From: a virus
Lineage: Duplodnaviria > Caudoviricetes
Strand: one strand, 5' to 3'
Virus record (IMG/VR): IMGVR_UViG_3300020045_011830
Location: 1-32,915 of that record
DNA length: 32,915 nt
Numbering within the stretch: position 1 is the stretch's first letter; each line of letters opens with the position of its first letter. The notes under the pieces were generated by a model. The model ran no database searches, was not told the DNA's origin, and worked only from the letters and a program-made list of their open reading frames with translations. Shown piece after piece: positions 2,698 to 32,915 of this stretch. The translations under genes were made by a program, and so were the position numbers.

Positions 2698-2916
2698 ATG
2701 TCATTACACGAGGATCTCACTAAAGAGGGATTGAACCCCCTCCGAATGCTCACGGCCACACTTTCGGAACTAGAGCCGGAAGCACGGGCTGACGCGCTGA
2801 TCAAACTCCTTGAGCTGATGTATCGTTATACGCCAAGCGATGAAGCCCTTGACCCCTCCAAGGATACCTCACTGAACGATTTCCTAACGAAACTGGATAA
2901 GTCCCAATGCAAGTAA
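2698..2916 (+). CDS. Small helical protein, possibly terminase small subunit-like
   Basis: 72 aa; GLNPL...ARADAL...YRYTP pattern shared with 10520-10804; overlaps start of next gene. Confidence 0.5.
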   Translation: MSLHEDLTKEGLNPLRMLTATLSELEPEARADALIKLLELMYRYTPSDEALDPSKDTSLNDFLTKLDKSQCK

Positions 2917-9975: not shown

Positions 9976-10523
9976 TGCTATCCTATCGTCCAGGCGTGCT
10001 GATAGAGAATTTCTTTCCCGTGGATCAATACAATCTCCTTGAAAAGTGCTTTCCAAGTCGCGGGCTATCGGTTCCTGAGCTTTTAGAAGGCAAAGTATTT
10101 AAGCTGAGTGAGTCGTTCTCGCGTCAGTTCTCGGACTTCCTAAGGCATAACAAACCCTGGTCCGCGTTCTATCGCGCGGTGAAGAATGTCGCCCATGGAG
10201 AACAGTTTATATCTTACCTTGGGGTGAACGCGAAGACGGCTCGTGTCACGGTAGAATTTGTCTGGCTTCCAGCAGATGGGGGCTATCTCAATCAGCCGGA
10301 ATGGCCCGCGAACCGTGCCGCTACCCTATTCTTGTTCTTCCCCTCGGAGTACTGGAAACCCGAGTTTGGGGGTGAATTAGACGTTGATGGCGTGAGCTTC
10401 CCGTACCTTCCGAACCATGGCGTATTGATCGCGGGATGTCCGTATAGCATTCGCCCCTGTAAGGGTACGGAATACGTGTATCATCGTACATTGCAGGTAC
10501 ATTTCCTTGGGTCCACGCAGTGA
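9975..10523 (+). CDS. 2OG-Fe(II) oxygenase-fold protein, metal ligands apparently lost
   Basis: IENFF start, LFLFFP..WKPEFGGEL, PYLPN and C-terminal R; no HxD...H triad at the expected positions. Confidence 0.55.
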   Translation: MLSYRPGVLIENFFPVDQYNLLEKCFPSRGLSVPELLEGKVFKLSESFSRQFSDFLRHNKPWSAFYRAVKNVAHGEQFISYLGVNAKTARVTVEFVWLPADGGYLNQPEWPANRAATLFLFFPSEYWKPEFGGELDVDGVSFPYLPNHGVLIAGCPYSIRPCKGTEYVYHRTLQVHFLGSTQ

Positions 10524-17919: not shown

Positions 17920-20900
17920 TGTTGCCCCGCCTTCTTTAAGACAATCTTTAATATCCTCCCATGACTCGCCACAAAGTCCCGGCGTGCGTTGGCATGGGCT
18001 TTCTGTACCGTTTTCTCAATCAAAGCTTTCTTTTGATCATCATCCGCCGCGCGATACTGGCCGGTGCTCATCAGATTCCGGGTCATCGCCATGGTCATCA
18101 AGCCCGCGCGCTCTATCAACTGGTTGTGTTCTTCCGGTGTAAGCTCATACAGCGACGTCTTGCGCTTAGGCTGCCGCACCCCCACGCCAAGCCGGTTCAT
18201 TTCCTCCAGTGCCTTGTCACCGCGATCCACGGAAACCGCCACAGGTACAAACGCACTCCCGCCGGTCTCGATATCCTGTCCCGTGATGTCCTTACGTGCT
18301 AGCAGCGTGCTCTTTAGCCCCGGTATCCGGGCCTTCACCCCGTCGAAAATGCCGTCCATGCGCCGGTACATGGGGTCCGTTTCTTTTGCCACGGCCCCTA
18401 GCAATCCTCCCCACGGCACGAAGGACGAGATAAAGCGCTGCGCCCACCCCTTGGCATATCTGTCTGGATCGGAGAACGCATTGCTCGCACCTGTCAGCCC
18501 TTGAAGCCAGAGTTTGCTTTGCAGCATCTTTGCCGTGGCCTTAAAGAACAGCAACACGGATTCCACCGCTTCTCTATCCTCCATCTTGTCAATCATCTGC
18601 GCAATTTCCGCACCGTAGCTAAACCAGGTCCCTACGGGGTCTAAGCGGTTGAACTGGACCCAGGTATCCCCTAGCTTAATCGCATTAGGAACACGGCCCG
18701 TGGAAAACCACACGTTGCGCTCTCCCTCGTCATCCGGGGGGCTCCCTGTCGCCAGCCCCGCCGCGCCCAGCATGAACGCGAACCCCACCAACCCCGTCCC
18801 CAGGAGGATACGCCCCGCCACGACATCCCGTGTAGCCCCGCCTACTTTCCATTCCTCCCACACGGAAGGCATAAGCAACGCGGTAGGCAGAAAGCCCCTG
18901 AACCCATACCCGATGATGTTGCTCGATACAGACAAGAAGGGCGTCAGCAGCCACAACGGCTTGAACTTGTTGGCCGCCGTTCGCCATGCGCCCGCCAGAG
19001 GCCCTATCTTCCCTTGCATCAACTGCCGATCCACTTGCTTGATCGCGTCGTCTTCTATTGCCTGTCGCATCTCCGCATTCCCTACTACCTGCTCTCGCGT
19101 CAAGCCAGTGGCGCTGGCCTTCCGCGCTAGCAAGGCTTCATATTCCTTCGAGAATACGATGCTCTTAAAGAAAGCGTCCTCCGCGCCCAGGAACCGAAAG
19201 CTCACACCAATCGCCGCGCCTAACGGGCCTTTGATCGGACGTCCGCGTTGCTGCCATTTGGTGGTGAACTGCGCACTCATTCCTTCCAGCACGGGAATGG
19301 CCTGTCCATCCGAGATAAAGGATTCGCCAAATGCCGCCAGGCCCTTTGGAACACCCTGGATGTAGCCGTTGAAATGCGCCGACAGCTCCGCCGCCGTGAC
19401 CTTCTCGCCACCGTGCAGAACACCTATTCCCGCCGCTAATATCTTGCTCGCATCCTCGACAGCCTGGACCAGGGCGTTTCCACCAATGTTTGCCAGGTGA
19501 CTCGCCGGGCCGCTGGTCATCCACGAACGCCAGGCATAGAAGAACTTCTCCCAGTTCGTCGCCGCATGGATGTCGCTATTAGCCTGTAGGGCCTTTCCTA
19601 TCCCTTTCGCCTTGCCCTCGACTTCACGAGAATACTTGGCCTCGGACATCTGTACCGCAAGCGCCTTCATCTTCGACCGGGCCAGCTCGACATCTTCATC
19701 AAGCCCCATCGTCAGTTCCAATGCCCCTAGCTTCCCTATCGTGGCCTGGAGCTTTCGGAATATCTGTAGCGCCCTCCCAGCCTCCGCTCGTGCTCCGAAG
19801 AACTGCGCCTTCAAGGACATCAGGGCCAGGCTTCGCTCATACGCATCCGAGTAATCCTCATCCGTGACCTGTCCTGCCTTCACTCGCTTGTCGAAGGCCT
19901 CGAAGTAGTCCATGTTCGCGGTAACTTCCCGTTCCATGATGTTCGCGAAGGCCTGTAAATTCTCACTGTTGTACGCCTCGCCCAGGCTCCGTTGCAGATA
20001 CTTATCCAACTGCATCGGGTCTTCGTTCAGCATGGCAGCCAGTTGTTCTGTCTGCCCCCAGGTCTGCACCCCGCGTCGCGTCACGGTTTCAACGGGTCGT
20101 CGGATGTCCGCCTCGATGGGCTGCGCCACGTTGATAGGCACACCCAGCGCCTTTTGCTTCTTCTCCGCCACCGCACGTACCGCATCCGATACCGCGGTGC
20201 GTTTCGGCATGTCCGTAACGATAAGCGGGGCTTTGCCCCCCGTCTGTAATTGCGCATGAGAGCGCTGAAGGAGATCGTACACGTCCGCGTCGGTCCAGCG
20301 ACGGAGAAGAGACGAAAAGCCATTGCTACGTAGCCAGTTCCGCACGCGCGCGGTGACCTTCTTAAAGAAGCCGGTGTTGTTGATAGCATCCCAGGTCAGG
20401 TTAGCCAGGGCTTCCTCGGTCGACAGAGAGACACTGTAGCCATACCTGACGCGCAGGGCGTCGGCTTGTGCCCGGAGGGACTCGTTGCCCGCGTAAATCC
20501 CAATCATCGTCTGGTGCATCTGGCTACCCATGATCCGCGATAACCCGTAATGGCCCACGACCTCGTGCAGCAGTACCCGCTGGACCTCTTCCGCCGTGCT
20601 CACGCGATCATGAAAGATGTACGCCACGCCCTGGTCAAACACCCCCTTGGCATCCCCAGGAACCCCGGCGGGCGCTGGGATAATCTGGATGGACGGCGCG
20701 CCTGGCCAGCCCTTCACAATAGGTTCTATCGCTTGCTTTGCGAATTCCGCCGTGACGCCGGTGCCGGGCTTTCCACGGGAGTATGCCGGGGCCTGTGAAA
20801 TGAGCTTATTGATATCTTCGTTCAAGCCCGTGATAAGTTGCCGTGTGGCTTCTTTCAGTGCCGTGTTTTCGTCCGTGCCCTCGGCGGCCAACCGGGCCTG

Positions 20901-20969
20901 GAGGCTCATCAGGTCTGACTCATCGGCGGGGTTCAGTTTACTCAGCGCTTCAACACATTTTCTGGCCAT
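17916..20969 (-). CDS. Large polyvalent / DNA-injection virion protein with zincin-like motif
   Basis: 1017 aa; LLHEVVGHYGL...EEALA (HExxxH) domain; helical C-terminal region with hydrophobic segments (LPD38-like). Confidence 0.7.
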   Translation of the reverse strand: MARKCVEALSKLNPADESDLMSLQARLAAEGTDENTALKEATRQLITGLNEDINKLISQAPAYSRGKPGTGVTAEFAKQAIEPIVKGWPGAPSIQIIPAPAGVPGDAKGVFDQGVAYIFHDRVSTAEEVQRVLLHEVVGHYGLSRIMGSQMHQTMIGIYAGNESLRAQADALRVRYGYSVSLSTEEALANLTWDAINNTGFFKKVTARVRNWLRSNGFSSLLRRWTDADVYDLLQRSHAQLQTGGKAPLIVTDMPKRTAVSDAVRAVAEKKQKALGVPINVAQPIEADIRRPVETVTRRGVQTWGQTEQLAAMLNEDPMQLDKYLQRSLGEAYNSENLQAFANIMEREVTANMDYFEAFDKRVKAGQVTDEDYSDAYERSLALMSLKAQFFGARAEAGRALQIFRKLQATIGKLGALELTMGLDEDVELARSKMKALAVQMSEAKYSREVEGKAKGIGKALQANSDIHAATNWEKFFYAWRSWMTSGPASHLANIGGNALVQAVEDASKILAAGIGVLHGGEKVTAAELSAHFNGYIQGVPKGLAAFGESFISDGQAIPVLEGMSAQFTTKWQQRGRPIKGPLGAAIGVSFRFLGAEDAFFKSIVFSKEYEALLARKASATGLTREQVVGNAEMRQAIEDDAIKQVDRQLMQGKIGPLAGAWRTAANKFKPLWLLTPFLSVSSNIIGYGFRGFLPTALLMPSVWEEWKVGGATRDVVAGRILLGTGLVGFAFMLGAAGLATGSPPDDEGERNVWFSTGRVPNAIKLGDTWVQFNRLDPVGTWFSYGAEIAQMIDKMEDREAVESVLLFFKATAKMLQSKLWLQGLTGASNAFSDPDRYAKGWAQRFISSFVPWGGLLGAVAKETDPMYRRMDGIFDGVKARIPGLKSTLLARKDITGQDIETGGSAFVPVAVSVDRGDKALEEMNRLGVGVRQPKRKTSLYELTPEEHNQLIERAGLMTMAMTRNLMSTGQYRAADDDQKKALIEKTVQKAHANARRDFVASHGRILKIVLKKAGQH

Positions 20970-20974
20970 AACTC

Positions 20975-21003
20975 TTTACAAAGTTGTCAATCGAGGTTAT
21001 AAT
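20975..21003 (+). promoter_or_regulatory. Sigma70-like promoter for 21036-21221
   Basis: TTTACA-N17-TATAAT, with inverted TTGACAACTT in the spacer. Confidence 0.65.
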
Positions 21004-21035
21004 GAAATCTCATCATCACAGTTTAGGACAAAACC

Positions 21036-21221
21036 ATGTTAAACGAAATCGAACAGAAGTTATACAATGAAGCACTGGCCGAACTCTGCCGGGATTTCGT
21101 GGAACTGGCGGAAGAAGTGGGGATGGATGAATCAGCCGAAGAATTGGAACAGTACGCACAGGACTACGAAGCTCAAGCGGCCACCCTGGCTAAAGAATCC
21201 GCCACTGCCGAAACTCGTTAA
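21036..21221 (+). CDS. Small highly acidic protein
   Basis: 61 aa, 17 D/E vs 4 K/R; own promoter and AGGA RBS. Confidence 0.7.
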   Translation: MLNEIEQKLYNEALAELCRDFVELAEEVGMDESAEELEQYAQDYEAQAATLAKESATAETR

Positions 21222-21495
21222 CCTCTACCACCCCGTAGCCTCTCAGGCGCTGCAGAGCGTCTGAGATTGCTTTCCGCCGTACCCCTGGAAACTCAAAATC
21301 ACGTAGTAGATACCGCTTTTCCGGTTTCATGAACTTAATGATCCTGTACTGGAGTCCCGTAGGTATTCCTATTACACTTCGTGGAGGCTGGAGTTCCAGG
21401 GTATCCCTGGGGGTTCCAGGGTTCGCCCTGGGTTGTTTTGGACTCCAATGGAAGGATTCATTGGCTTTCTTGATATACAAATCTTGTATTGACAT
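21190..21495 (-). CDS. Putative winged-HTH protein
   Basis: ATG at 21495 downstream of a terminator; RKAISDALQRLRGYGVVE wHTH-like C-terminus. Confidence 0.55.
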   Translation of the reverse strand: MSIQDLYIKKANESFHWSPKQPRANPGTPRDTLELQPPRSVIGIPTGLQYRIIKFMKPEKRYLLRDFEFPGVRRKAISDALQRLRGYGVVEVNEFRQWRIL

Positions 21496-21509
21496 TAGGG
21501 AGTTACCAT

Positions 21510-21531
21510 AAAAAAGCCCGGCGAACCGGGC
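21510..21531 (-). terminator. Rho-independent terminator
   Basis: GCCCGG-TTCG-CCGGGC-TTTTTT on the minus strand after 21571-21975. Confidence 0.85.
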
Positions 21532-21570
21532 AAGGACCATGCCTCAATAGGAGGAGGAGGCGGGCTGCAT

Positions 21571-21975
21571 CTATCTCATTTCGACGGCTGAGGGTTCGAC
21601 CCCCCACAGCATCGTCCGATATCGGTGAACCACTGGGCTACCAAAGTCGCGGTAACGCATACGCGGGAGAAACTCGCCGTTGTTTCCCGACTTGATAAAC
21701 ACAAGGGCATGGTGCATCACTTTACCCCAGTCCTTGCGGGTCTCCAGCACACATGCGTCGTTAATATTGTCCGAAAACCCGGTGATGTGAACAGAACCTT
21801 CGCCGCGAATATCGCAGGTCAGGTACTCATGCGTCGGCGCGCTGACTTCATGCGTCACACGGTTCCTGGTGGAGTGCGTCACACGCAACACCCAATCACT
21901 TACATCACCCATACCACCAGCCATCGCTGGCAACGTAACAAACAATAATACAAAACTAATTAATTTCATTGGCAA
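21571..21975 (-). CDS. Secreted/periplasmic hypothetical protein (moron-like unit)
   Basis: Signal peptide MKLISFVLLFVTLPAMA; own promoter and terminator. Confidence 0.65.
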   Translation of the reverse strand: MPMKLISFVLLFVTLPAMAGGMGDVSDWVLRVTHSTRNRVTHEVSAPTHEYLTCDIRGEGSVHITGFSDNINDACVLETRKDWGKVMHHALVFIKSGNNGEFLPRMRYRDFGSPVVHRYRTMLWGVEPSAVEMR

Positions 21976-21992
21976 TTTTTCCTTTCATTTAA

Positions 21993-22020
21993 AGCATAAC
22001 ATACTAATCATTCTTGTCAA
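21993..22020 (-). promoter_or_regulatory. Sigma70-like promoter
   Basis: TTGACA-N16-TATGCT with extended TG. Confidence 0.55.
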
Positions 22021-22090
22021 GCTCTCCCGCGTCCGCGATGAGCGACATGATCACTAAAAACAACGTTACAAGAATAAGCTTAATCATGGC

Positions 22091-22663
22091 CTACCCCCCT
22101 GGGCGACAGAGCGCTGCCGCCTCCACGAGCCATCTAGCAAAGTCCGGCGGTGTATGCTCTCTCGCCGCCTTACCCAGCCCCGGCAACTTCCCGCGACGGC
22201 TTCCTTTCCCGGCAACCTCATGTGTGGGAGGGGCAAAGTTCAAAGGGATTTGCGGGATATCGCCCGGCTCAACTCCGCATAGGTACAAAAGGGTAGATTT
22301 TCGCGCTTTATGTCCCCACCAACACTGATCCACGCAAATAGACCATCCACCAAAAATGTCTCTGCTTTTTGCCAGGGGCAGGCCAGCTTCCACCCACAGC
22401 TTTGATGTTCGCGGATGCTCCAGCACCCCACCGTACTTTCTGACCTGCTCGACGGCCCAGAACGCCAGGTCGCGCTCACCTGGCCGAGGCTTAGCAAATT
22501 TAGCGAGGTTACCCCATGCTCTACACGGCGGGTGAGCTACCACAGGATAGGGACCAGGGTATTTCGTTGCATCCCGATCCACATCCCATACATCACAGTA
22601 CGGTATTTTTTTGTAGGTACTATCAGCCCGCGCAAACAGCACGGCAACACGCATCTTATTCAT
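22091..22663 (-). CDS. Short phage DNA cytosine-C5 methyltransferase-like protein
   Basis: VVAHPPC catalytic motif IV, GGVLEHP (motif VI-like), GHKARK, TPPDFARWL. Confidence 0.75.
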   Translation of the reverse strand: MNKMRVAVLFARADSTYKKIPYCDVWDVDRDATKYPGPYPVVAHPPCRAWGNLAKFAKPRPGERDLAFWAVEQVRKYGGVLEHPRTSKLWVEAGLPLAKSRDIFGGWSICVDQCWWGHKARKSTLLYLCGVEPGDIPQIPLNFAPPTHEVAGKGSRRGKLPGLGKAAREHTPPDFARWLVEAAALCRPGG

Positions 22664-22681
22664 ACAAATACACCCTAACAG

Positions 22682-23191
22682 TTAGTGGCGCTCCTGGCTG
22701 TTAGCGGAGTGCGGGGGACACTCCCCAGGAGCAATATCCCCAAAGTCCCCATCATAAACTTGTCTTTGGAACTTGTCAAGCAACGAATACGTGTAGTACT
22801 CGCCGCCCTCCCGCGATCCAGCCCACACGAACGGCATCATGTACCGCACCTGAAACGCGATGATGGACTGAAGGACAGCATGCGGACTCATCCGCGACAC
22901 GTAACGGTGGATGCGCACCGTGTCCACGGACGCTTCGATCACCACGGCCTTGCACACCTTCGACATCAGTCGCTCCAGCTCGCGCTCGAACCTGTCGCGG
23001 TTCTGCCCCATCAGGCACGACACCAGGTCATCCAGACTCTTTCGCTCAATCGCAATCTCCGCCTCCAGGCCAGGGAGAGAGTAGTCACCTTCGGGCAGCG
23101 CCACGCGCTCAATCTCTACTTCGCGTTTCTCGAAGAGGTAAGGTTTCTGCTCACGTGTGTCAACGAGGACCTTCAGAAGGGTGTTTTGCAT
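22682..23191 (-). CDS. ERCC4-domain nuclease
   Basis: VDTREQKP, GDYS, IERKSLDDL, RFERELER motifs. Confidence 0.9.
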   Translation of the reverse strand: MQNTLLKVLVDTREQKPYLFEKREVEIERVALPEGDYSLPGLEAEIAIERKSLDDLVSCLMGQNRDRFERELERLMSKVCKAVVIEASVDTVRIHRYVSRMSPHAVLQSIIAFQVRYMMPFVWAGSREGGEYYTYSLLDKFQRQVYDGDFGDIAPGECPPHSANSQERH

Positions 23192-23285
23192 GCGGGGCCG
23201 GTAGTATGGTACAGGGTAGGTGGTGATCGCCGCGTTGTAGCTATCGACATACGCGCCAGGGCTGATCCTGGCGCGTTGTTCCCGG

Positions 23286-23492
23286 TTATTTCAGCTGACT
23301 CATCATCTCGACAATGAGTTGCTCTAGATGCGCCATGCGCTCCAGCAGGTCTTGCTTGTCCTTGACGCACTCCAGGTGCCGCGCTTCCAGGAGCGACACG
23401 ATCCGCTGGAAGAGCCACCAGACGACACCGCCCAGGCTGGACACCGCAGCAACAAGGTGCGCGGGATCAATCGCGATGACGTCAGCCGACAT
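23286..23492 (-). CDS. Small membrane protein, holin-like
   Basis: 68 aa from ATG 23492; one TM helix followed by a coiled coil. Confidence 0.55.
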   Translation of the reverse strand: MSADVIAIDPAHLVAAVSSLGGVVWWLFQRIVSLLEARHLECVKDKQDLLERMAHLEQLIVEMMSQLK

Positions 23493-23507
23493 GGGTATCC
23501 CCGGGGG

Positions 23508-23775
23508 GGTCAATCCCCGCGTGTGCGGGGGAATCGCCAGGCTCAAGCCGAACACCGTGGAGTTTTGGGGTCGATCCCCGCGTGTGCGGGGGAATAGTGG
23601 TGACGTTCATTTGTTGCCAAAACCTCCAAGGTCAATCCCCGCGTGTGCGGGGGAATCCCGCGTGTGCGGGGGTATCTGCCGCATGGATAGGGTCAATCCC
23701 CGCGTGTGCGGGGGAATCCAGCCATTCTACCCCACTGCGGGGCTAAGAGTCAATCCCCGCGTGTGCGGGGGTATC
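23508..23775 (-). CRISPR. Type I-E-like CRISPR array A (5 repeats)
   Basis: 28-bp repeats GGTCRATCCCCGCGTGTGCGGGGGWATM at 23508, 23569, 23630, 23691, 23748 (last begins with A); three 33-bp spacers and one 29-bp interval; minus-strand 3' end GGGGATTGACC resembles I-E GGGGATAAACC. Confidence 0.95.
23724..23753 (-). promoter_or_regulatory. Promoter built from repeat end plus 29-bp pseudo-spacer
   Basis: TTGACT (23753-23748)-N18-TAGAAT (23729-23724), 5 bp before the next repeat. Confidence 0.6.
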
Positions 23776-24245
23776 TATGCGCCGTCCCCATTATCCGCCG
23801 TGGTGACGTTCATTTGTTGCCAAACCCTCCAACTTGAGTCTGGATAGGAAGTATTCTGCGCGGCACAGGTATACCCCTTGCTCGCCGCCTGGTAGGTCCC
23901 ACGGAAGAACAAGCTACCCCATCCTTGCGTCTGCACGGCCTTAGCCACGAAGGAGGCAGCGCTATACTCGCCAGGGCCTATTATGTAGCCCACAGATTTG
24001 ATACACGCATTCGTGGCCGGATGAAAACGCCAAAACCGGATCAAATACTGCTGCGAGTTGGTATTGTTTATGAACGTCTGAACGGTGATGAAATCATTAG
24101 CCAGGTCACAGGTGGTGGTATTTCCACACGACATCACGGGATCGGTAGTCGGATCTCCTGGGAAAAACCCCTGGTTCGGACCACAAGCCGCCAAGGCCGC
24201 AACGGAAAGGAAGAAGGAGAAGAACGCGCCGATCTTTTGAATCAT
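23775..24245 (-). CDS. Lipoprotein of unknown function between CRISPR repeats
   Basis: Signal peptide with lipobox LAAC; AGGAAG RBS; stop codon overlaps the repeat by one base. Confidence 0.8.
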   Translation of the reverse strand: MIQKIGAFFSFFLSVAALAACGPNQGFFPGDPTTDPVMSCGNTTTCDLANDFITVQTFINNTNSQQYLIRFWRFHPATNACIKSVGYIIGPGEYSAASFVAKAVQTQGWGSLFFRGTYQAASKGYTCAAQNTSYPDSSWRVWQQMNVTTADNGDGA

Positions 24246-24277
24246 GGTTACACTTCCTGAAAAGTTATTAATCCGCG

Positions 24278-24306
24278 ATTATCCCATAAGCCCCGTGGGG
24301 CGTCAA
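24278..24306 (-). promoter_or_regulatory. Sigma70-like promoter of the lipoprotein gene
   Basis: TTGACG-N17-GATAAT with extended TG; palindrome GCCCCACGGGGC in the spacer. Confidence 0.65.
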
Positions 24307-24315
24307 CCCTTAGAC

Positions 24316-24512
24316 GGTCAATCCCCGCGTGTGCGGGGGTATCTTGGCTTGCTCCGATTTCAAATCGACGCAAGATGGTCGATCCCCGCGTGTGCGGGGG
24401 TATCAATCTCTACTTCGCGTTTCTCGAAGAGGTACGGGGTCAATCCCCGCGTGTGCGGGGGTATCTATCCAGGAGATCGGCTCAGAATTGAGCCAAGGGG
24501 TCGATCCCCGCG
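24316..24512 (-). CRISPR. Type I-E-like CRISPR array B (3 full repeats and 1 half repeat)
   Basis: Repeats ending GGTATC at 24316, 24377, 24438; 14-bp partial repeat at 24499; three 33-bp spacers; exact 61-bp period. Confidence 0.95.
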
Positions 24513-24577
24513 AGCACAAACAGCCACCGGGGGTCCAGACCCTGTTCCTTCATCACGTCCAGCACCAGGATTTCCAT
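24482..24577 (-). CDS. Possible 31-aa peptide running through the half repeat
   Basis: TGATG coupling to the upstream gene; MEILVLDVMKEQGLDPRWLFVLAGIDPLAQF*. Confidence 0.3.
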   Translation of the reverse strand: MEILVLDVMKEQGLDPRWLFVLAGIDPLAQF

Positions 24578-25569
24578 CAATCGAAAATGCCCAGCTTCTG
24601 CGGAGGCTCTTTCCCACGCAATATGGTCTCATACTCTGGGCGATCCAGACTCAAGAAAGGGTGCTTGGCGCGTCGTGTCGCCGCATCCATCCACATGCGA
24701 GCCTCGACTGCCCTGGCTTCCATTTCTCCCGCCAGACGCTTGTAGAGTTCGTGTTTCGTTAGCCATTTCGGCAGCAAGGGGTTTCGCCGGGCGTAGTTTC
24801 CTAGCTCTGGATCGGATGGGGATCCGCCACGCTCAAAGCCCTCGTACCGTTGCACGCGATGCTGTAGTTCGTGGAGCAAGGTCTTTCGCCGGTCGAGCCC
24901 CTCGACGGGTTTCGACGACATCGCCATACTGCCTTCGCCCGCTGCCCCACGCACGCCCGGTGGTAGCTCCTTGATATACACGGGGTAGTCCTTGAGGAAC
25001 GGGTACTGCTTGAAGAGTTCGGGATGATCCAGCAGATTTTTTGCGTAGAACACGCCAGGCTTCATCTCGCCCGTGGCCGGGATCTTAAACTTTGCCTTGG
25101 AATCGTCAATCTCAAACCGCCACTGGTCATCCAGCCCCTTATGCCAGCCAGTCTTTGCCGCGACTTCCTCCCGCGAGAACTTCTTAGCCAGGGCCTCTAT
25201 CGCCTCTGCTCGCTCCCGCAAGGGCGCTTTCTCTGCCTTCGCTCCCGCGAATATGGCCGCTAGGGCACCGGAGAAGCCCTTAGCGCCCGCCTTGAGCTCC
25301 ATGGTAGGGTCAGGTGAGAGTAACCCACCACCCAGGTGTAAGGCCTTCTCTCCCGTCGTTTCTGGGGTAACTGTCGCCAAGAACTTACCCATCTGGTCCT
25401 TTATCCACTCAGACCCCCCCACGGACTTCTCGACCGGCGCCTGGCCGTCCACCATCCGCACCAGGTTCATCAGGGCCTGCATGGCGTCCACGGGCAGGCC
25501 AGCGGTTCCCGCCAGGGATTCGTTGATGCCAGAGCCCAGGAGGCCCAGGGATTTGTCGGCGGATGGCAT
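24577..25569 (-). CDS. LPD23-like polyvalent-domain protein
   Basis: TGWHKGLDDQWRFEIDDS, HPELFKQYP, LLHELQHRVQRYEGFERGG, LAGEMEAR; GAGGA RBS. Confidence 0.8.
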   Translation of the reverse strand: MPSADKSLGLLGSGINESLAGTAGLPVDAMQALMNLVRMVDGQAPVEKSVGGSEWIKDQMGKFLATVTPETTGEKALHLGGGLLSPDPTMELKAGAKGFSGALAAIFAGAKAEKAPLRERAEAIEALAKKFSREEVAAKTGWHKGLDDQWRFEIDDSKAKFKIPATGEMKPGVFYAKNLLDHPELFKQYPFLKDYPVYIKELPPGVRGAAGEGSMAMSSKPVEGLDRRKTLLHELQHRVQRYEGFERGGSPSDPELGNYARRNPLLPKWLTKHELYKRLAGEMEARAVEARMWMDAATRRAKHPFLSLDRPEYETILRGKEPPQKLGIFD

Positions 25570-25571
25570 GG

Positions 25572-25760
25572 CTATTCCTCAGTGGTTGGTTCCGACATTG
25601 TAGCTTTTCGTGAGGGATTTGTCAGTGAGAGGGGGTGCTGCCCATGCAAATCCTGGCAAAAGCGCCGGAAGTCCATCAATTCGGGCCAGCTTAGCTTTTC
25701 TTCTGCCGGTTTATTGGCGGTTTTTTGCTCGTATCGGAGCACTGCAGGGTGGTTTTTCAT
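25572..25760 (-). CDS. Hypothetical protein
   Basis: 62 aa, stop 2 bp upstream of the next start. Confidence 0.4.
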   Translation of the reverse strand: MKNHPAVLRYEQKTANKPAEEKLSWPELMDFRRFCQDLHGQHPLSLTNPSRKATMSEPTTEE

Positions 25761-25860
25761 AATAAGTGGTCATTTCGTTTAAAGTGTGGTCATTTTACCA
25801 GAGGTCCCTAACCTCCGTCAACCCCCCGCCCCGCCTTGCGTTGAGGTGGTGGGGCAGGGA

Positions 25861-26162
25861 GTGATACCAAGTGATACCAAGTGGCATACCATGAGAAACT
25901 ACATTAAGAATCATCGCTAAGTAGCAGTTAAGGGCTTTTGTTTTTTACTACTAATACCACTAATACCACTAATACCAAGTACTTTAAAGTTTATATAGAG
26001 AGAGAAACAGAAATATATATATCTCCCCCAGGAGTAATTTGGAGGTTTTTGCTGGTTTTCGTGAGGTACTTGGTTAGAGCAAGCTGTGGCGCGGACTTGG
26101 GGGGTGGGGGTACTTGGTATGCCACTTGGTATGCCACTTGGTATTAGTGGTATTAGTGGTAT
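25861..26162. repeat. Convergent iteron arrays flanking an AT-rich core; putative replication origin
   Basis: Six ATACCA units on + (25864-25977) and five TGGTAT units (26115-26162); AT-rich core ~25981-26023; directly downstream of primase-helicase. Confidence 0.75.
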
Positions 26163-26230
26163 GTCGCTCAAAGACGACGAAGCCCCAAGGAGGGATATGG
26201 TCCTTGAGGCTCGAGTTAACCATACGCTTA

Positions 26231-28402
26231 CTAATCGGGGTTGTCAACCGCCAAAAAGCGAAGTTTGACGCCATGTATCCGGCTGGCTATCCTTCCGTAA
26301 CCGTGCATCCCTGACCGCGGTTTGTACACCACGCCTTTCTCTCTGCGTTCATCCCGGAAGTAGCTGATCACCCTCTCAACGAACACGCTCACCGAGACCG
26401 GCTTTTCTCCATGGGACTCGCACCAGGTGTAGTAATTGGGGTAGGCCCACGTTCCAATGTTTGCGTATCCTAGCGCTTTCGAGGAGGCGTCTTTCATCAC
26501 CAGCTTGCCGATGAAAACAAAGCCGTTTGGATCGCACCCCTCCAGATTGTCCTCTGCCCAGGCCGCCACATGATTACGCTCCGTGCTCACACGGATCGCG
26601 TTCCCTCGCAGCCGGTCCGACAACGTGTCGCGTGCCCGGATCGCCTCCAGCATCTCCGCCTCTGACATCCCTAGAGCCCACACCGCCAGTCCGGGGATAT
26701 GGGGTAGAAACTCCTCATCCAGCCGCCGCACCTGGGAAGGTAAGACCGACTTGTTGAAGGGCAGGTTGATTTCACGCCTGGCCAGCGCGCCAGGGTTCGT
26801 GCTACGTAGCTGCTTGTTCGCGGCAATGACAATCGTGCCATTGAACCGAAACCCGCTATCCGCATCCTTGTTTTTGCGTTCGTAGCGTATCAAATCGCCG
26901 CCCGTGAGCTTCAGCAGGGTTTTGACATCACCGCCCCAGGTTTCGGAGTCAGGCAGACAAACAAGGCCCTTCCCTTTCAGGTTGGAAGTCTCGAAACGGT
27001 TAGTCTCGATGTCTGCCAGGCTGGTGGAATAACTGTTCTCGCTGCCAATCAGTTGTTCGAGCAGCCATACGAACGTGCTCTTTCCGCTATTGGGTGCGCC
27101 GTTGATGTAAAGGTAATACTGATACTTCCCGCCAAGACGGCACAACACCAGCCGAACCACTGCGCGCATAAGCTCAAACTGCCCTTCGTCCCCCTCGCAG
27201 ACGTCCTCTAGCAGCCAGGAAAGGATAGGGGTAGGCACGGCGTCCTGGATATACCCGTAATGCATCCGGTAGGTCAGCAGCCGCCGGGATTGAATTGGCG
27301 CTAACTCCAGGGTGTCGGGGTTTAACAGTCCATTGCTGAAGGGTAATAGATGCCCGCCATCCGTAAAGCCTTCTTCCGCGCAATAAAGCCTGGCCAGCTC
27401 CTCGACCCACGCGGGTAATCGGCTATGATATTCCACGCCGCGACAACAGTCAGTCAGGGCGTTATTGATGAATGCCAGCATCCAGGCGTCCTTCCTCACC
27501 TCCCATATCCCATTGACGTTTTCCCGCCATGCCAGGCTAGGGACATCAAACCGGAACTGTGGATAAGCCTCTTTAAAGCTAAGTGCAATGCCGCTGTGCG
27601 CCCTCAAACGGCTCACTTCCTTATCTTTGATGAACACGGTTTCCGTGGGGGAAAAGGCCGTGCTCGACTTCACCGATCCTTCCTTCCCGTTCTTTGTCCA
27701 GTCAGCAATCTTCCTTACCTCATCCTCAGGCAGTGGTGGATCGCACTGTGCCCCGTTCATCCGGGCCAGGATTTGGCGGACTTCCTCGGGGGTGGAGCCT
27801 GCCCATCTGAGTCGTTTCGCGTGGTCCACAAGCAAGTTATGGCGCCCGCCTTCGCTAACGATTTCGCCGGTAGTGGAGGAAGGAAGAGGGCTAACTGGAG
27901 TAGTGGGTATCAGGCTTTCCACCTCTGTTTGCCGCGTGTTGATTTCCATCGGTGTCCCTGGCCAATGGTCGCCGGTCATAATGAAGAATCTTCCCGTGTG
28001 ATATATCTCCAGTCCAGGCACCTTGTACGCCCGTGCCAGGGTGGCCTTGATGAAAATATGTAACCCCGTGGCGGACTGTGACACTTCCGTGTAGCTATCC
28101 AGTAGCTCGACAATCCGCTGTGCCTCCGTGGATAGCTCCCCGGTCTCTTTGTCTAAGCATTTATCCAGGTCCACACCCACATAGGGGTCTGTGGCGGTGA
28201 ACACAAAACCCATGGCCTGTGGATAGGCTTGGAGGACATGCCCAAAACTGGACCAGTGTTTTGGATTCGTGCTGCTTGCGCCACTTCGGTCGAACGGATT
28301 GATGGGGAGCTTTTTCTTGTCCGGTGTGAGTGTCCAGGTGATCCACTGGGGGAGTACCTTTAGCTCATCTGGGATATTTTCTGGTGATGGATTTTTGTAC
28401 AT
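26231..28402 (-). CDS. Primase-polymerase/PriCT/SF3 helicase (P4/D5-type)
   Basis: Probable start MYKNP at 28402; GVDLD, EVSQSATGLH, EIY (AEP); EGGRHN...PPLPEDEV (PriCT); GAPNSGKST, LTGGD, IAAN (SF3). Confidence 0.92.
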   Translation of the reverse strand: MYKNPSPENIPDELKVLPQWITWTLTPDKKKLPINPFDRSGASSTNPKHWSSFGHVLQAYPQAMGFVFTATDPYVGVDLDKCLDKETGELSTEAQRIVELLDSYTEVSQSATGLHIFIKATLARAYKVPGLEIYHTGRFFIMTGDHWPGTPMEINTRQTEVESLIPTTPVSPLPSSTTGEIVSEGGRHNLLVDHAKRLRWAGSTPEEVRQILARMNGAQCDPPLPEDEVRKIADWTKNGKEGSVKSSTAFSPTETVFIKDKEVSRLRAHSGIALSFKEAYPQFRFDVPSLAWRENVNGIWEVRKDAWMLAFINNALTDCCRGVEYHSRLPAWVEELARLYCAEEGFTDGGHLLPFSNGLLNPDTLELAPIQSRRLLTYRMHYGYIQDAVPTPILSWLLEDVCEGDEGQFELMRAVVRLVLCRLGGKYQYYLYINGAPNSGKSTFVWLLEQLIGSENSYSTSLADIETNRFETSNLKGKGLVCLPDSETWGGDVKTLLKLTGGDLIRYERKNKDADSGFRFNGTIVIAANKQLRSTNPGALARREINLPFNKSVLPSQVRRLDEEFLPHIPGLAVWALGMSEAEMLEAIRARDTLSDRLRGNAIRVSTERNHVAAWAEDNLEGCDPNGFVFIGKLVMKDASSKALGYANIGTWAYPNYYTWCESHGEKPVSVSVFVERVISYFRDERREKGVVYKPRSGMHGYGRIASRIHGVKLRFLAVDNPD

Positions 28403-28600
28403 ATATTTTCCCTTTTCCCAAACGGTGGTGGCAGATAAAAGGGCGGGCCAGCGTTTGGGATACTGGCCCGTTACTGCGGGTACGTTGAAGTGTTTGCCCT
28501 GGTTAGACGTCCAGTTGTTCAGTTGTCTAAGCTGAACTGGCAAGACGAATAATCTCTTATTTTCGTGTCCGTGTCAAGTCATTTCTTAGCTCACGCAGTG

Positions 28601-28628
28601 TTGACAACTTTCTAAACTATGTTATACT
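28601..28628 (+). promoter_or_regulatory. Early promoter, copy 1
   Basis: TTGACA-N16-TATACT with extended TG; 34/43 identical to 30367-30409. Confidence 0.75.
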
Positions 28629-28667
28629 GTAATCACAGTATCCGATTAACCCAAAGAGGACAACAGA

Positions 28668-28985
28668 ATGAACGCAAAACTTATAGAAGCCGCACAAGAG
28701 CGCATCATAAGATTATCCGCCGTGGTCACTGACAATGCTCGTGAACAAAAGGAGCTCACCAGTGAAATACGTGGCCTGAAGGCGCTCATTCGCAAGCTCG
28801 AAAAAGGGATCGTACCAAAGACGGGGTTAATCACCGTGCTGTATTCGAGTATTGGCCTGGTGGATCAAGAGCAGGATGATGTTGAGCGCGTCGTCTTGAT
28901 GGCGTGGATCGTATGGAATATCGTTGCGATGCAACAAGCAAAAGCACGTTCGTTGTTCTGCAACTGTTGGAGTGTGGATGGCTAG
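28668..28985 (+). CDS. Hypothetical protein with N-terminal coiled coil
   Basis: GAGGA RBS downstream of the promoter. Confidence 0.6.
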   Translation: MNAKLIEAAQERIIRLSAVVTDNAREQKELTSEIRGLKALIRKLEKGIVPKTGLITVLYSSIGLVDQEQDDVERVVLMAWIVWNIVAMQQAKARSLFCNCWSVDG

Positions 28986-29097
28986 GGAAAAAGAAGCCAC
29001 GCGGCCAAAGGGGGGTGGAGAAAATCGCCGCGCGGCTGAAGATCATCTTGGAAGCTAAATTGTATCTTAATGTTCAACGTAAATCAAGTGAGGAATC

Positions 29098-30030
29098 ATG
29101 AGTAAAGAAATCAGTTTTCCTGTTCTATTGCAAAAGACCTTGCCGGAAATTGCAAAAGCCTTGCCGAAACATCTTACGGCAGAGCGCATGGGGCGCATTG
29201 CGCTGACCGCCTTCCGACAGAACCCGGCGCTTGCGGAGTGCGATCCAATGTCGATCATCGCGTGTGTTGTGCAGTCCGCGCAACTGGGTCTGGAGCTGGG
29301 GGTTAGCGGGCATGCTTTCCTTGTGCCGTATAACGGACGGTGCCAATTTGTTCCCGGCTGGCGTGGGCTGGTGGACCTGGTGAGCCGCGCGGGACGTAGC
29401 TCTGTCCACACGGGAGTAATCCATCAGGGGCAAGAGTATCGCTACACGCAAGGGGCAAGGCCGGACCTGGCGATCCTTACGGAGTCGGATGAGGATAAGC
29501 CGATCATCTACGCGTATGCCGTGGGTTGGGTAAAAGGCGCGGAATGGCCTGTCATCGAGATGTGGAGTGCCGAGAAACTCATGAAGCACCGCGACAGGTA
29601 TAACAAGGTAGGGAAGCGACACTACTCCTACGCGAACTGGGAAATGTACTGTCGCAAAGTTGTTTTGCTCCAGGTGTTAAAGTACATGCCTTCGTCCGTG
29701 GAGTTGTCAACGGCGATAGCGCTGAACGACGCAGCTGAAGTGGGTAATCAAGGCGTAACCGTGGAAGGAGCAATTGACTGGTCCTGGACGCCCCCTGAGC
29801 GCGATGAAATAGGTGCGCCGGATGGGAGTGAGCCATCCTCGACAAGAGAGGGCGTGAAGGTCGCGTATGCGGGAGAAATCCAGGCCATCAAGGAGCATTT
29901 GGGGATGGGTGATGTAGCCGAGGCTAAGCGGCTTTGGGCGGCGATCCCGCAAGCGGACCAGATTCAATTATGGGTCGCCCCGACCAAAGGCGGGTGTTTT
30001 ACAACGGAAGAGCGTGAGCAGTTGAGGTGA
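29098..30030 (+). CDS. recT: RecT-family single-strand annealing recombinase
   Basis: IAKALPKHLTAERM, CDPMS...SAQLGLE, AFLVPY, GWRGLVDL, WEMYCRKVV; GAGGA RBS. Confidence 0.92.
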   Translation: MSKEISFPVLLQKTLPEIAKALPKHLTAERMGRIALTAFRQNPALAECDPMSIIACVVQSAQLGLELGVSGHAFLVPYNGRCQFVPGWRGLVDLVSRAGRSSVHTGVIHQGQEYRYTQGARPDLAILTESDEDKPIIYAYAVGWVKGAEWPVIEMWSAEKLMKHRDRYNKVGKRHYSYANWEMYCRKVVLLQVLKYMPSSVELSTAIALNDAAEVGNQGVTVEGAIDWSWTPPERDEIGAPDGSEPSSTREGVKVAYAGEIQAIKEHLGMGDVAEAKRLWAAIPQADQIQLWVAPTKGGCFTTEEREQLR

Positions 30031-30033
30031 TGT

Positions 30034-30363
30034 ATGAAAACTTTTGTGGTGAGTATTTTGTTATCCACGATGATCCCATTAACGTCGGATGCGTCGGTCT
30101 ATATGCACGACTTTCGTCCAAAAGAAGGTCTCACGTGCAAACTGTTGACGCAAAAAGGGCTTAAGGAGCTGAAGGCAAAAGCGGCTCGCATTCAGCCTAT
30201 TTCCAAGGAGTCGGCAATAATCTATCCCAAAAAACCTGACTTCAATACTAATACGATGGGTGTTTACGTGGTGGCAAAAACACATCCTGAATGTTTTATG
30301 TTGTCTGTGGATGTGATGATTGACTTCCTGAAGCGATTTGCCGCCGTGACACGCGTGGATTAG
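30034..30363 (+). CDS. Hypothetical protein with signal peptide
   Basis: GAGGTG RBS; hydrophobic N-terminus ending SDA. Confidence 0.6.
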   Translation: MKTFVVSILLSTMIPLTSDASVYMHDFRPKEGLTCKLLTQKGLKELKAKAARIQPISKESAIIYPKKPDFNTNTMGVYVVAKTHPECFMLSVDVMIDFLKRFAAVTRVD

Positions 30364-30373
30364 CTGCGCAGCA

Positions 30374-30401
30374 TTGACAACTTATCAAACAATGCTATAC
30401 T
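30374..30401 (+). promoter_or_regulatory. Early promoter, copy 2
   Basis: TTGACA-N16-TATACT with extended TG. Confidence 0.75.
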
Positions 30402-30447
30402 TTAATTACGAACAGAAAATAGTCTTACTAACCATAGGAGCATTTCA

Positions 30448-30648
30448 ATGACACAAGACCATGAATTTATTGCAATTTTAAAGTTGCTCATTATGCAAAA
30501 CGCCGAGGAAATGGCGGTAATGATACGTGATGCAAAAACGCTGGAATGGGAAATGCAAATGGAAAAATTATGGACTGCCGCGCTTCATTACAGAGTTAAA
30601 GATTGCGTAACTCAATTACCGGGACGGAACCATGCGGATGATGACTAA
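30448..30648 (+). CDS. Hypothetical protein
   Basis: AGGAG RBS after the promoter. Confidence 0.65.
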   Translation: MTQDHEFIAILKLLIMQNAEEMAVMIRDAKTLEWEMQMEKLWTAALHYRVKDCVTQLPGRNHADDD

Positions 30649-30979
30649 AAGACCCAGGATAATGATCATGATGAATAGATTTGAAGCACAAGCGTATGCG
30701 CGCTGGAAGGAAGTAAAGAAGATCGCCGCGCCGAGTGATAAGGAAATTATCGCAATCGCGGAATACACGGACAACGCAGAGGGCGAATACGATCCATCCA
30801 TATACGTGTATTATCTCGATGGAAAGGATATCATTGAGCGGGAAGTACGGATACATTACATTGATGAAACGGAGTTGTCTTATTACCAGACCGTGAAAGC
30901 TTTCCGCAGACATGGGCTATCGGTAGATGATTTGGATTTCGCTTTAGGTATTAATGATTATGCGGAGGTTGAAATGTGA
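30632..30979 (+). CDS. Hypothetical acidic protein
   Basis: Overlaps both neighbours; start uncertain (several ATGs). Confidence 0.6.
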   Translation: MRMMTKRPRIMIMMNRFEAQAYARWKEVKKIAAPSDKEIIAIAEYTDNAEGEYDPSIYVYYLDGKDIIEREVRIHYIDETELSYYQTVKAFRRHGLSVDDLDFALGINDYAEVEM

Positions 30980-31341
30980 AAATTATTAAGCATATTGTGT
31001 ACTTCATCTTGGCCACGCTTTTTTGGATAAGTGTATTTGGGATGATTGATAGAGCACACGCGGCGACTGTTAATGTGTATGTTTTGGACACAACATTATC
31101 GAAACCTTTGGACTGGTGCCGTGTAAAAACGCTTGCTCAGTTAAATTTGGAAATAGCGGCATTCAAAGCGCAAGGGTATGAGATAACACAAGAGCATCAT
31201 CAGGAATTGAAGTTAGTTGTGTTCGCCGCGAAAAGAGAGAAAAAGGCTATAGTGACTTACGTTTTCTCAGATGGAAAAGAGTGCTGGTTTATAGCTGGCG
31301 CAACGATGAACGAAATGCAAAAAGGGAGAACTGACTTATAG
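30976..31341 (+). CDS. Hypothetical secreted/membrane protein
   Basis: GGAGG RBS, GTGA coupling, hydrophobic N-terminus ending AHA. Confidence 0.65.
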   Translation: MKIIKHIVYFILATLFWISVFGMIDRAHAATVNVYVLDTTLSKPLDWCRVKTLAQLNLEIAAFKAQGYEITQEHHQELKLVVFAAKREKKAIVTYVFSDGKECWFIAGATMNEMQKGRTDL

Positions 31342-31357
31342 GTTTTTGGAGGTTTTT

Positions 31358-31534
31358 ATGTTTACTCACAGGGGATATATTACGACATTCGTAGTGCTGC
31401 TTGCGATTATTGTAGCTGTGATTTCTTTAGTAGCGTATGGTTTATTTTTACTAGGAAGCAATGAGGTTCATCATGAACGGAAATTTGATTTATTGGGGGG
31501 TGTTTTGCGTCATTATCGCGATACTGGTAGGTAA
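31358..31534 (+). CDS. Small membrane protein
   Basis: GGAGG RBS before ATG 31358; one long hydrophobic helix. Confidence 0.5.
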   Translation: MFTHRGYITTFVVLLAIIVAVISLVAYGLFLLGSNEVHHERKFDLLGGVLRHYRDTGR

Positions 31535-31599
31535 TTTCATAGTGAACACCAGGCCAGATAATCACAAACAATCCGCCGTATGTGCGTGGTCAGACACGG

Positions 31600-31824
31600 C
31601 TAAATGCAACTAATCAGCAAACTTATGTAACGTATTCTGACAACAAAACGAAATAACACAACTATTGCGCGGGCTCTCTTGTTGTACAAATAGTGCATAA
31701 AGAAGCCCGCTTTATCTAAAATGTCTCCTTTGTGTTCCAGTTCTGGGTCAATAATGGTGTGTTCCTGGTCTGCCAGTTTGTTGTATTCTTCCCTATAATC
31801 CAGCGGTTTGCTGTCTAAATCCAT
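31600..31824 (-). CDS. Hypothetical protein
   Basis: 74 aa overlapping the end of the glycine-rich gene. Confidence 0.35.
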   Translation of the reverse strand: MDLDSKPLDYREEYNKLADQEHTIIDPELEHKGDILDKAGFFMHYLYNKRARAIVVLFRFVVRIRYISLLISCI

Positions 31825-32657
31825 ACAAAAGTAATGAAGCCTCCCGTTCCCGCGCCTCCCGCGCCGCCGGTCACCCCCGCGCCACCACCGCCACCGCCAG
31901 AGCCGAAGCCTGTCGCCGCAGTTCCCGCTGAGCCGGCCCCCGCCGCGCTGCCCGCTCCTCCGGTTCCAGCGGTTCCGTAAGAAGAGGGTGCGCCCCCACC
32001 GCCACCGCCGGACGTGCCGCCCGCGACCCCTGACATACTCCGAATCGCGCCGAGTTTGGGGAGTACCGATGTCCCCGCTGCCGAGGAGTTGCCGCCGGAG
32101 CCTCCTCCATAGGCACTGAATTGTTTCCCGTTAATCTCGATTAACCCTTGTGCGCCGGAGCCGATGGACGAGTTGATGCCTATTCCCGCTCCTCCAACAG
32201 ATGCAGTCGGCATCGTGGACACCGGAGCCGAGGGCAGAGTAAGCAGTCGCACACCTGATTGGGTTATCGAAAGCGGCGTAGGAGAAGCTTGAACCCCCGT
32301 GCCTGCCGTGGAGGCAGGAACGATAAGGGTTACGTCGGTACTGTCCATCAGATAGATGACCACATCCGATATGCCTATCCCGCTCCCGCCTCCAGCGCCA
32401 CCGCCACCGCCTATAGCAGAGAACCCTGGTTGGCCATCCGTTGCCGCCGAACAGGCGGAAAGTATCCTCATCCCGACCTTACCCGCCGGAGGCGTTATTA
32501 CAAACGTTCCCGCCGTGGTATAACTATTCATGTCGGAAATAGAGCCAGGCGACCCGCCCAGGGTGACTGGCATAGGATTCGAGCTACTAACATCGTGCTC
32601 GTCATCGTCAGGCCCGATGAGTATTTTGACCTTTCGCTTATGGTAGTTGCCGCTCAT
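31815..32657 (-). CDS. Glycine-rich virion/tail-fibre-associated protein
   Basis: VSSSNPMPV, YTTAGTFVITPPAG, multiple GGGGG runs and terminal GGAGTGGFI, typical of phage glycine-rich domains. Confidence 0.75.
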   Translation of the reverse strand: MSGNYHKRKVKILIGPDDDEHDVSSSNPMPVTLGGSPGSISDMNSYTTAGTFVITPPAGKVGMRILSACSAATDGQPGFSAIGGGGGAGGGSGIGISDVVIYLMDSTDVTLIVPASTAGTGVQASPTPLSITQSGVRLLTLPSAPVSTMPTASVGGAGIGINSSIGSGAQGLIEINGKQFSAYGGGSGGNSSAAGTSVLPKLGAIRSMSGVAGGTSGGGGGGAPSSYGTAGTGGAGSAAGAGSAGTAATGFGSGGGGGGAGVTGGAGGAGTGGFITFVWI

Positions 32658-32661
32658 AATG

Positions 32662-32910
32662 TTATCTCAAACAATCTAGAAGGTTAGTGAGTGTCTCTAT
32701 CCTTGATTGCAAGTTGCGGATAGAGTGTGTAATGCTTGCCTGTGTGGGGCTTGTGGGTTCAGCCAGCATTTTCGCGATATCTTCTTCCGTGCGTGGCATC
32801 GCCCCGAACATATCGCCTTGCATGGCGTGCACTTGATCGTTAGCTAAAACATGCGCGACGTTCGTGAGTTTCTCCGCGAGCACCTTTGGGGATCGCACAT
32901 GATCCGCCAT
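32662..32910 (-). CDS. Hypothetical protein
   Basis: 82 aa upstream of the glycine-rich gene; at window edge. Confidence 0.5.
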   Translation of the reverse strand: MADHVRSPKVLAEKLTNVAHVLANDQVHAMQGDMFGAMPRTEEDIAKMLAEPTSPTQASITHSIRNLQSRIETLTNLLDCLR

Positions 32911-32915
32911 CGCGC

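Follow-up and report, generated by a model that had tools for sequence, protein, structure and literature searches.

The phage genome analysed here carries a mini-array of the type I-E CRISPR family, cas-less in this contig, that encloses a predicted lipoprotein gene between two of its repeats, and we consider it probable that this array loads host Cascade with guides directed against sibling phages. This reading is built on the anatomy of the locus, the family of its repeats, two spacers that match the phage's own genes at 32 of 33 positions with mismatches in the seed, and one 33-nt junction spacer. The sequence analysed, hereafter the window, is a whole virus record (32,915 nt, linear, approximately 52 % complete). 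It encodes a P22-like portal, terminase, major capsid protein, primase, RecT, an ERCC4-domain nuclease, an LPD23-domain protein and two muralytic enzymes; the virion and replication genes among these (portal, terminase, major capsid protein and primase), together with its status as a virus record, place the array in a virus genome. None of the 39 window ORFs matched a Cas family and no Cas1 was found in the record; given its incompleteness, the absent portion could contain cas genes or spacer targets. The contig yielded no integrase, and a search of Rfam returned no match. At the protein level, relatives reached at most 66 % identity for the ERCC4 nuclease, 44 % for terminase, 40 % for the LPD23 protein and 34 % for portal, and DNA comparison found no relative in the collections searched. 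Elsewhere in the window, genes for a TPR protein, a family-29 glycosyltransferase and methyltransferases are clustered at 2907-8807 (plus strand), perhaps for virion or surface glycosylation; a non-coding region at 25860-26140 with the short repeats GTGATACCAA and TAATACCAC adjoins the primase gene and is possibly a replication origin; and two similar strong sigma70-like promoters (28594-28636 and 30367-30409) drive small genes of unknown function around recT, which are candidates for host-takeover or anti-CRISPR functions.

Eight full repeats of 28 nt and one half repeat lie within positions 23508-24512 (Table 1), and six of the seven short intervals between repeats measure 33 nt. The minus strand is taken as the sense strand of the array because variants of the repeat sit downstream of type I-E cas genes in the bacterial loci checked. 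Read in that direction, and judging from the repeat types and from a predicted promoter, P2, the locus consists of array A with GATAC-type repeats, the lipoprotein gene with its promoter P1, one more GATAC-type repeat, and then P2 with array B, whose repeats are of GATTC or TATTC type. The array may have entered by way of the 14-nt microhomology within the 31-codon ORF in which the half repeat lies. Internal palindromes in spacer A3 and in spacer A1 could form hairpins.

Table 1. Coordinates of the array, of neighbouring genes and of the bacterial inserts used for comparison
Feature	Position	Strand	Remarks
31-codon ORF	24482-24577	-	Overlaps stop of LPD23 gene; holds half repeat and part of spacer A1
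Half repeat	24499-24512	-	3' half (14 nt); opens array A; inside 31-codon ORF
Spacer A1	24466-24498	-	33 nt; no target found
Repeat	24438-24465	-	GATAC type
Spacer A2	24405-24437	-	33 nt; 32/33 to own ERCC4-nuclease gene
Repeat	24377-24404	-	GATAC type
Spacer A3	24344-24376	-	33 nt; no target found
Repeat	24316-24343	-	GATAC type; upstream edge of 540-bp segment
P1, predicted sigma70-like promoter	24278-24306	-	TTGACG-17-GATAAT, extended TG; -35 starts 9 nt after upstream repeat
RBS-like AGGAAG	24253-24258	-	7 nt ahead of ATG; read from sequence
Predicted lipoprotein gene	23775-24245	-	Orphan, 156 aa; lipobox LAAC21; stop codon completed by repeat
Protospacer of B2	23800-23832	-	Inside lipoprotein gene; 32/33, mismatch at base 8
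Repeat	23748-23775	-	GATAC type, last base T; downstream edge of 540-bp segment; intact 6-bp hairpin
Off-length segment	23719-23747	-	29 nt, after downstream repeat
P2, predicted promoter	23753-23724	-	TTGACT-18-TAGAAT; 29-nt segment plus repeat end
Repeat	23691-23718	-	GATTC type; first of array B
Spacer B1	23658-23690	-	33 nt: 14 unique nt plus first 19 nt of GATAC-type repeat
Repeat	23630-23657	-	GATTC type
Spacer B2	23597-23629	-	33 nt; 32/33 to enclosed lipoprotein gene
Repeat	23569-23596	-	TATTC variant
Spacer B3	23536-23568	-	33 nt; no target found
Repeat	23508-23535	-	GATTC type; last of array B; 16 nt ahead of 68-aa ORF
Membrane-protein ORF	23286-23492	-	68 aa; N-terminal hydrophobic helix; starts 16 nt past last repeat; no significant family match
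ERCC4-domain nuclease gene	22682-23191	-	Family match; same minus-strand gene run as array
Protospacer of A2	23111-23143	-	In ERCC4 nuclease gene; 32/33, mismatch at base 3, silent
RecT-family annealing protein	29098-30030	+	Family match
L018 insert	L018:7754-8170	-	417 nt; orphan small membrane-protein gene; begins with inverted copy of repeat end
L046 insert	L046:15625-16010	-	386 nt; orphan small membrane-protein gene; ATG exactly 33 nt past repeat

Type I-E systems are recognized by repeats of 28-29 nt with a 6-bp hairpin, by spacers of 32-33 nt, and by the neighbouring genes cas3, cse2, cas7, cas5 and cas6e. By sequence, the phage repeats belong to this family. The 6-bp hairpin is kept in all eight full repeats, and close variants, detected in arrays of many bacterial phyla by a looser scan of 29 of the 64 parts of the collection, were found downstream of cas3, cas7, cas5 and cas6e in all three loci checked (out of 126), two of which also had matches to cse2 and cas1. 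In the bacterial loci of this family, counting those that overlap, 7,517 of 7,635 short intervals are 33-nt spacers. The exact phage repeat sequences were absent from the genomes, viral contigs and metagenomes scanned, and the 5,542 bacterial spacers of these loci gave no convincing match to the phage. The 29-nt interval of the phage array has a length seen only twice among the 7,635 bacterial intervals; together with the adjoining repeat end it reads as P2, from which transcription would start at the next repeat, and P2 is likely, on its sequence, to be the promoter of array B. No terminator-like site was found in 23200-24800, and array A is probably transcribed by read-through from upstream.

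The initial annotation of this DNA had described a promoter and a lipoprotein gene set like a giant spacer between two repeats of GTATC type (GATAC on the sense strand), and this description holds. The two repeats are identical at 27 of 28 positions, exactly 540 bp separate them, and the enclosed unit comprises a sigma70-like promoter, a ribosome-binding site and a lipobox ORF, the G of whose TAG stop codon, at position 23775, is also the base with which the downstream repeat begins on the minus strand. The promoter match carries no significance by itself (two sites in 23200-24800 against 0.9 +/- 1.1 in shuffles); over 20000-32915 such sites are enriched (23 against 8.8 +/- 3.2) and mostly precede genes. 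A GCCCC-N-GGGG motif common to P1 and P2 was discarded as being at chance level (three matches, 2.15 expected). The 540 bp contain no transposase, and an origin as an insertion sequence was rejected, there being neither terminal inverted repeats nor a target-site duplication, both of which the same procedure detected in a bacterial control element (L019). What the initial annotation had missed is that the 540 bp also hold the near-perfect target of spacer B2.

Bacterial lipoproteins, the substrates of signal peptidase II, begin with a basic N-region followed by a hydrophobic stretch and a lipobox ending in cysteine. The 156-aa ORF has each of these elements (K4, a hydrophobic stretch at residues 5-20 and LAAC21), with Gly at +2 and four further cysteines, and it is accordingly predicted to encode a lipoprotein. 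It is the only lipobox ORF of at least 40 aa in the window. Dinucleotide shuffles of the segment yielded an ORF of at least 150 aa in 6 of 1000 cases, and one of at least 100 aa with a lipoprotein signal in none of 1000. The GC3 of the gene, 0.64, lies within the range of 13 other phage genes (0.54-0.73). As regards function, the protein found no homolog but itself among 49 candidates and none in viral contigs; a search of 1.84 billion representatives returned itself and one marginal match (E 7.8e-4), which was set aside as it covers 37 residues of a repetitive 2,252-aa protein. There was no match up to E 1 in PHROG, Pfam or NCBIfam and no PDB chain of Cor/Llp type, and matches by ESM Atlas features (at most 0.85), named lipoprotein or hypothetical, serve as leads only. 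Single-sequence structure prediction gave six strands at a pLDDT of 38, and a fold search of BFVD with this model found no match at E 0.001 or better. The best VIA match had a Z of 6.8, to assorted beta-barrels, while the Atlas model resembles beta-sandwiches, and these matches are generic; because the barrel-like and sandwich-like matches disagree, we retain only the description 'all-beta'.

The initial annotation had likened the protein to phage lipoproteins that mediate superinfection exclusion, and that proposal gained no support from homology, family or usable fold, nor did we find any evidence tying the lipoprotein to exclusion. As with Llp of T5 and Cor (10.1101/2022.06.28.497910), it is a phage-encoded lipoprotein with additional cysteines, yet those proteins are much smaller, the mature part of 135 aa being about twice the length of Llp (approximately 61 residues, 7 kDa), and they share no sequence, family or fold match with it. 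Exclusion is nevertheless the best single guess, because this is a separately promoted lipoprotein inside a conflict locus, and we tentatively suggest, as a possibility somewhat short of an even one, that the protein is a periplasmic factor anchored in the outer membrane that interferes with the entry of kin phages.

The evidence for guides against kin lies in the spacers, two of the six matching the phage itself, with targets within 1.3 kb. In each case 32 of 33 bases agree, for which the chance expectation is 9e-14; the B2 mismatch replaces Val, encoded here, with Phe in the spacer. The 5' flanks are AAG followed by T at the lipoprotein target and AA followed by C at the ERCC4 target. In bacterial loci of the repeat family the first spacer base is strongly depleted in A (146 of 5,456), which suggests that it is PAM-derived as in other I-E systems; type I-E PAMs are given as AAC, AAG, AAT and AAN (PMC8482600). 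With that base counted as PAM-derived, the mismatches fall at positions 7 (B2) and 2 (A2) and the flanks read AGT (lipoprotein) and AAC (ERCC4); if the PAM lay wholly outside the 33 nt, they would read AAG and AAA, respectively. The bacterial loci themselves permitted no derivation of a PAM. The I-E seed, as outlined in PMC4678831, comprises positions 1-5, 7 and 8, and both mismatches lie inside it, an outcome with a chance of about 5 % by hand arithmetic. Spacer B1 is of another kind. Its repeat-derived part has A at position 4, as in array A, a base seen in none of 7,864 repeat matches in the bacterial loci, and where only 2 of 5,456 bacterial spacers contain 12 or more repeat bases, B1 contains 19 nt. 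From its sequence, B1 was likely copied from an array junction of a sibling phage; a pair of deletions that together add up to 33 nt would be a less economical alternative. A bacterial array (L057) has a 33-nt spacer with part of a repeat in reverse orientation, an indication that array junctions can be acquired as spacers. No target was found for A1, A3 and B3 (three of six spacers) among the searches made; exact scans of viral contigs for segments of A3 and B3, and of metagenomes for a segment of B2, gave no match, A1 and B1 lying outside these scans, and comparison of the spacers with the window at the peptide level added nothing new.

In type I-E immunity, Cas6e cuts each repeat hairpin and Cascade carries the resulting guides. 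Our current working hypothesis is that host Cas6e would act on the hairpins of the phage transcripts and that host Cascade would take up the guides. Transcription from P1 would yield a lipoprotein mRNA that runs into the downstream repeat and is cut by Cas6e 20 nt past the stop codon, and P2 would provide the array B transcript. Guides B2, A2 and B1 would then direct Cascade and Cas3 to the lipoprotein gene, the nuclease gene and the mini-array of a rival, respectively, B2 being aimed at the sibling's version of the very gene that the array encloses, while the differences in seed and flank would blunt attack on the carrier itself. Of the combined exclusion module envisaged in the initial annotation, the crRNA side is thus strengthened, by the two near-self spacers with seed mismatches and by the junction spacer, whereas the entry-block side is not. 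As to its suggestion that Cas6 could trim the mRNA, a 3' cut just past the stop codon is plausible with the hairpin intact, but since P1 lies downstream of the upstream repeat, Cas6 could set only the 3' end and not the 5' end. The hairpin begins 4 nt past the stop codon, and translation and cutting may compete, because a terminating ribosome would overlap the hairpin. Targeting of kin is favoured by the fact that both repeats flanking the gene are of GATAC type while those of array B are not. Against it, no sibling phage, and thus no perfect target, was found. In addition, an AAC-like flank remains at the A2 target, and single seed mismatches in E. coli often still permit interference or priming (PMC4678831); self-protection would therefore call for an anti-CRISPR or a tolerant host, and the phage may need an inhibitor, of which none was found here.

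As to how the gene came to lie between repeats, we lean towards duplication of an array-A repeat around it by recombination at the repeat, because both flanking repeats match array A in type and the unit abuts them; integration directed by a repeat has been described before (10.1101/2020.10.09.333658), and the phage has a RecT of its own, which could recombine repeats. The landing of two arrays on either side of the gene is a lesser though serious possibility, since the phage-like GC3 and the other allele implied by B2 mark the gene as one of the lineage, while insertion of long DNA by Cas1-Cas2 appears improbable.

The same observations bear on cassette exchange by recombination between the flanking repeats, a further proposal of the initial annotation. 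In the form considered here, the repeats would be recombination sites for exchangeable cassettes, such that promoter and envelope gene are swapped or excised, for example by RecT, and Cas6 would define the mRNA end. The flush boundaries of the unit (the -35 box 9 nt from one repeat, the stop codon overlapping the other), its near-identical flanks, the lack of transposon marks and the presence of RecT in the window all agree with this proposal, as do two arrays found in a bacterial control of 5,891 unique inter-repeat segments from 126 loci. Fifteen of these segments measured 100-3,000 nt, and nine of the fifteen had regular spacers on both sides; the nine held two cas1 genes, three DDE transposases, one element with terminal inverted repeats, one N gap and two single-gene segments. 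The last two, L018 and L046, are both in Dehalococcoidia arrays of the type I-E family, and each has a sense-strand ORF (101 or 111 aa) for an orphan membrane protein between perfect or near-perfect repeats, with its stop 17 nt ahead of the next repeat. Each gene is single copy in its genome, save for a 37-nt lookalike of the L046 start. Nevertheless, the two proteins are unrelated to each other, have no significant Pfam match and lack a convincing homolog among 300 and 200 further genomes of the same class, and such inserts are rare (2 of 5,891). Moreover, searches of viral contigs, and searches with the ERCC4 gene, DNA or terminase, revealed no relative of the phage in which the site is empty or the repeats enclose other cargo, and the GC3 of the lipoprotein gene is phage-like. 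The gene is not a one-off passenger, because B2 shows that a near-identical allele existed. On balance we regard exchangeable cassettes as unlikely, and we take the same view of their wider form, in which I-E repeats would be gene-cassette sites in phages and bacteria alike, with envelope genes stored as giant spacers, mRNA ends made by Cas6 and swaps by repeat recombination, and here also with guides against rival alleles and arrays, making the locus both weapon and target. Two further observations were made in the control arrays. The L019 element (8602-10000, minus strand), which lies inside a spacer, is bounded by terminal inverted repeats of 26 bp and accompanied by a target duplication of 8 bp; it has no recognized transposase, and the 169-aa ORF that it carries in two identical copies is without a Pfam match. 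Three genomes have a cas1 gene flanked by repeats, either within an array or at its edge (L029:18020-19313, L035:8682-9998 and L048:11554-12804).

A regulatory role for the near-self spacers, in which Cascade would occupy sites within the lipoprotein and ERCC4 genes but leave the DNA uncut, and the stop-codon repeat would link the stability or translation of the lipoprotein mRNA to host Cas6, seems to us improbable. Both targets do lie in the array's own minus-strand gene run, the hairpin follows closely on the stop codon, and regulatory crRNA-like RNAs are known (10.1101/2023.03.03.530964). However, the pairing of known regulatory guides is partial and takes place at promoters (10.1101/2024.10.29.618823), whereas B2 and A2 pair at 32 of 33 positions inside ORFs, which invites cutting or priming, and neither the spacers nor the 29-nt segment gave a partial promoter match in the window or in 129 loci, among which the true host is absent.

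Slighter still is the likelihood of an anti-CRISPR decoy, in which captured host spacers and B1, together with the 29-nt unit and an oversized crRNA of 540 nt, would sequester host Cas6 and Cascade or lead them astray. Silencing of I-E systems by viral arrays with short spacers is indeed known (10.1101/2024.10.29.618823), B1 and the 29-nt unit can each fold with adjacent repeats into alternative hairpins, and spacers against this lineage could stem from a host array; yet all eight repeats have the full hairpin, the six spacers are of normal length, the 29-nt unit reads as a promoter, and no cas-promoter match was seen in the loci compared, which do not include the true host.

Least likely is a lysis lipoprotein (o-spanin or u-spanin) whose position is incidental: it is the sole lipobox ORF found in a window with two muralytic genes, but on position and hydropathy, in a record with half of the genome missing, a spanin role is unlikely, the gene lying at least 9.5 kb from either muralytic gene, with its own promoter, no upstream i-spanin-like partner and no PHROG spanin match, and the protein, with a hydropathy maximum of 0.69 (19-residue window) past residue 25, having none of the C-terminal membrane helix that is a feature of u-spanins.

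We therefore return to guides against sibling phages as the preferred reading, for which virus-borne mini-arrays offer the closest parallel. The locus is a variant of this known type. In SPV1 and SPV2 the mini-arrays target nearby loci, of which the carrier has point-mutated versions (PMC6858448). The phage has in common with these viruses host-type repeats without cas genes, for the phage within this contig, as well as two close arrays, a promoter ahead of an array, and spacers matching nearby loci with point differences in the carrier's copies. It differs in having six spacers where those have one or two per array, in the complete gene with promoter between two full repeats, itself targeted by the array, and in the spacer that copies an array junction; no rival genome was found for the phage. 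Kin-directed guides have been discussed for phages (PMC7099407; survey in 10.1101/2023.03.03.530964). Long DNA between two repeats is also a feature of bacterial arrays with spacers of at least 100 nt (PMC4524480), but those are mostly transposon-like, whereas the phage segment is one flush expression unit without transposon marks. PhiAP1.1 (10.1101/2020.10.09.333658) likewise uses a repeat as recombination site and places foreign DNA between two repeats, although there it is a whole prophage in a host type II-A array and here one gene in the phage's own type I-E array. Viral Cracr or crRNA-like regulatory arrays (10.1101/2024.10.29.618823) resemble this one as a phage I-E array with one short unit, but the phage repeats keep full hairpins, its full-length spacers match coding DNA, and no cas-promoter target was seen in 129 loci, the true host being absent from them; guides of the Cracr and CreR kind are short and match part of a cas or toxin promoter. 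In the literature on genes inside arrays, mostly short descriptions considered apart from their supplements, we found no gene between repeats that is targeted by the same array; the supplementary tables of viral mini-arrays in 10.1101/2023.03.03.530964 may hold similar cases. The locus is unusual in that the gene it encloses is also among its targets, which is the new feature, and in that a further spacer is directed at another array.

Mini-arrays are considered a means by which phages direct host immunity against their kin, and modelling has the outcome depend on whether they can overcome the exclusion genes of a rival (PMC7099407). In this phage a candidate envelope factor, a guide against another allele of it and a guide against another array lie within one kilobase, so that their interplay is testable with small constructs. 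If it is true that genes between repeats are exchangeable, CRISPR arrays would gain a second use as gene-cassette platforms.
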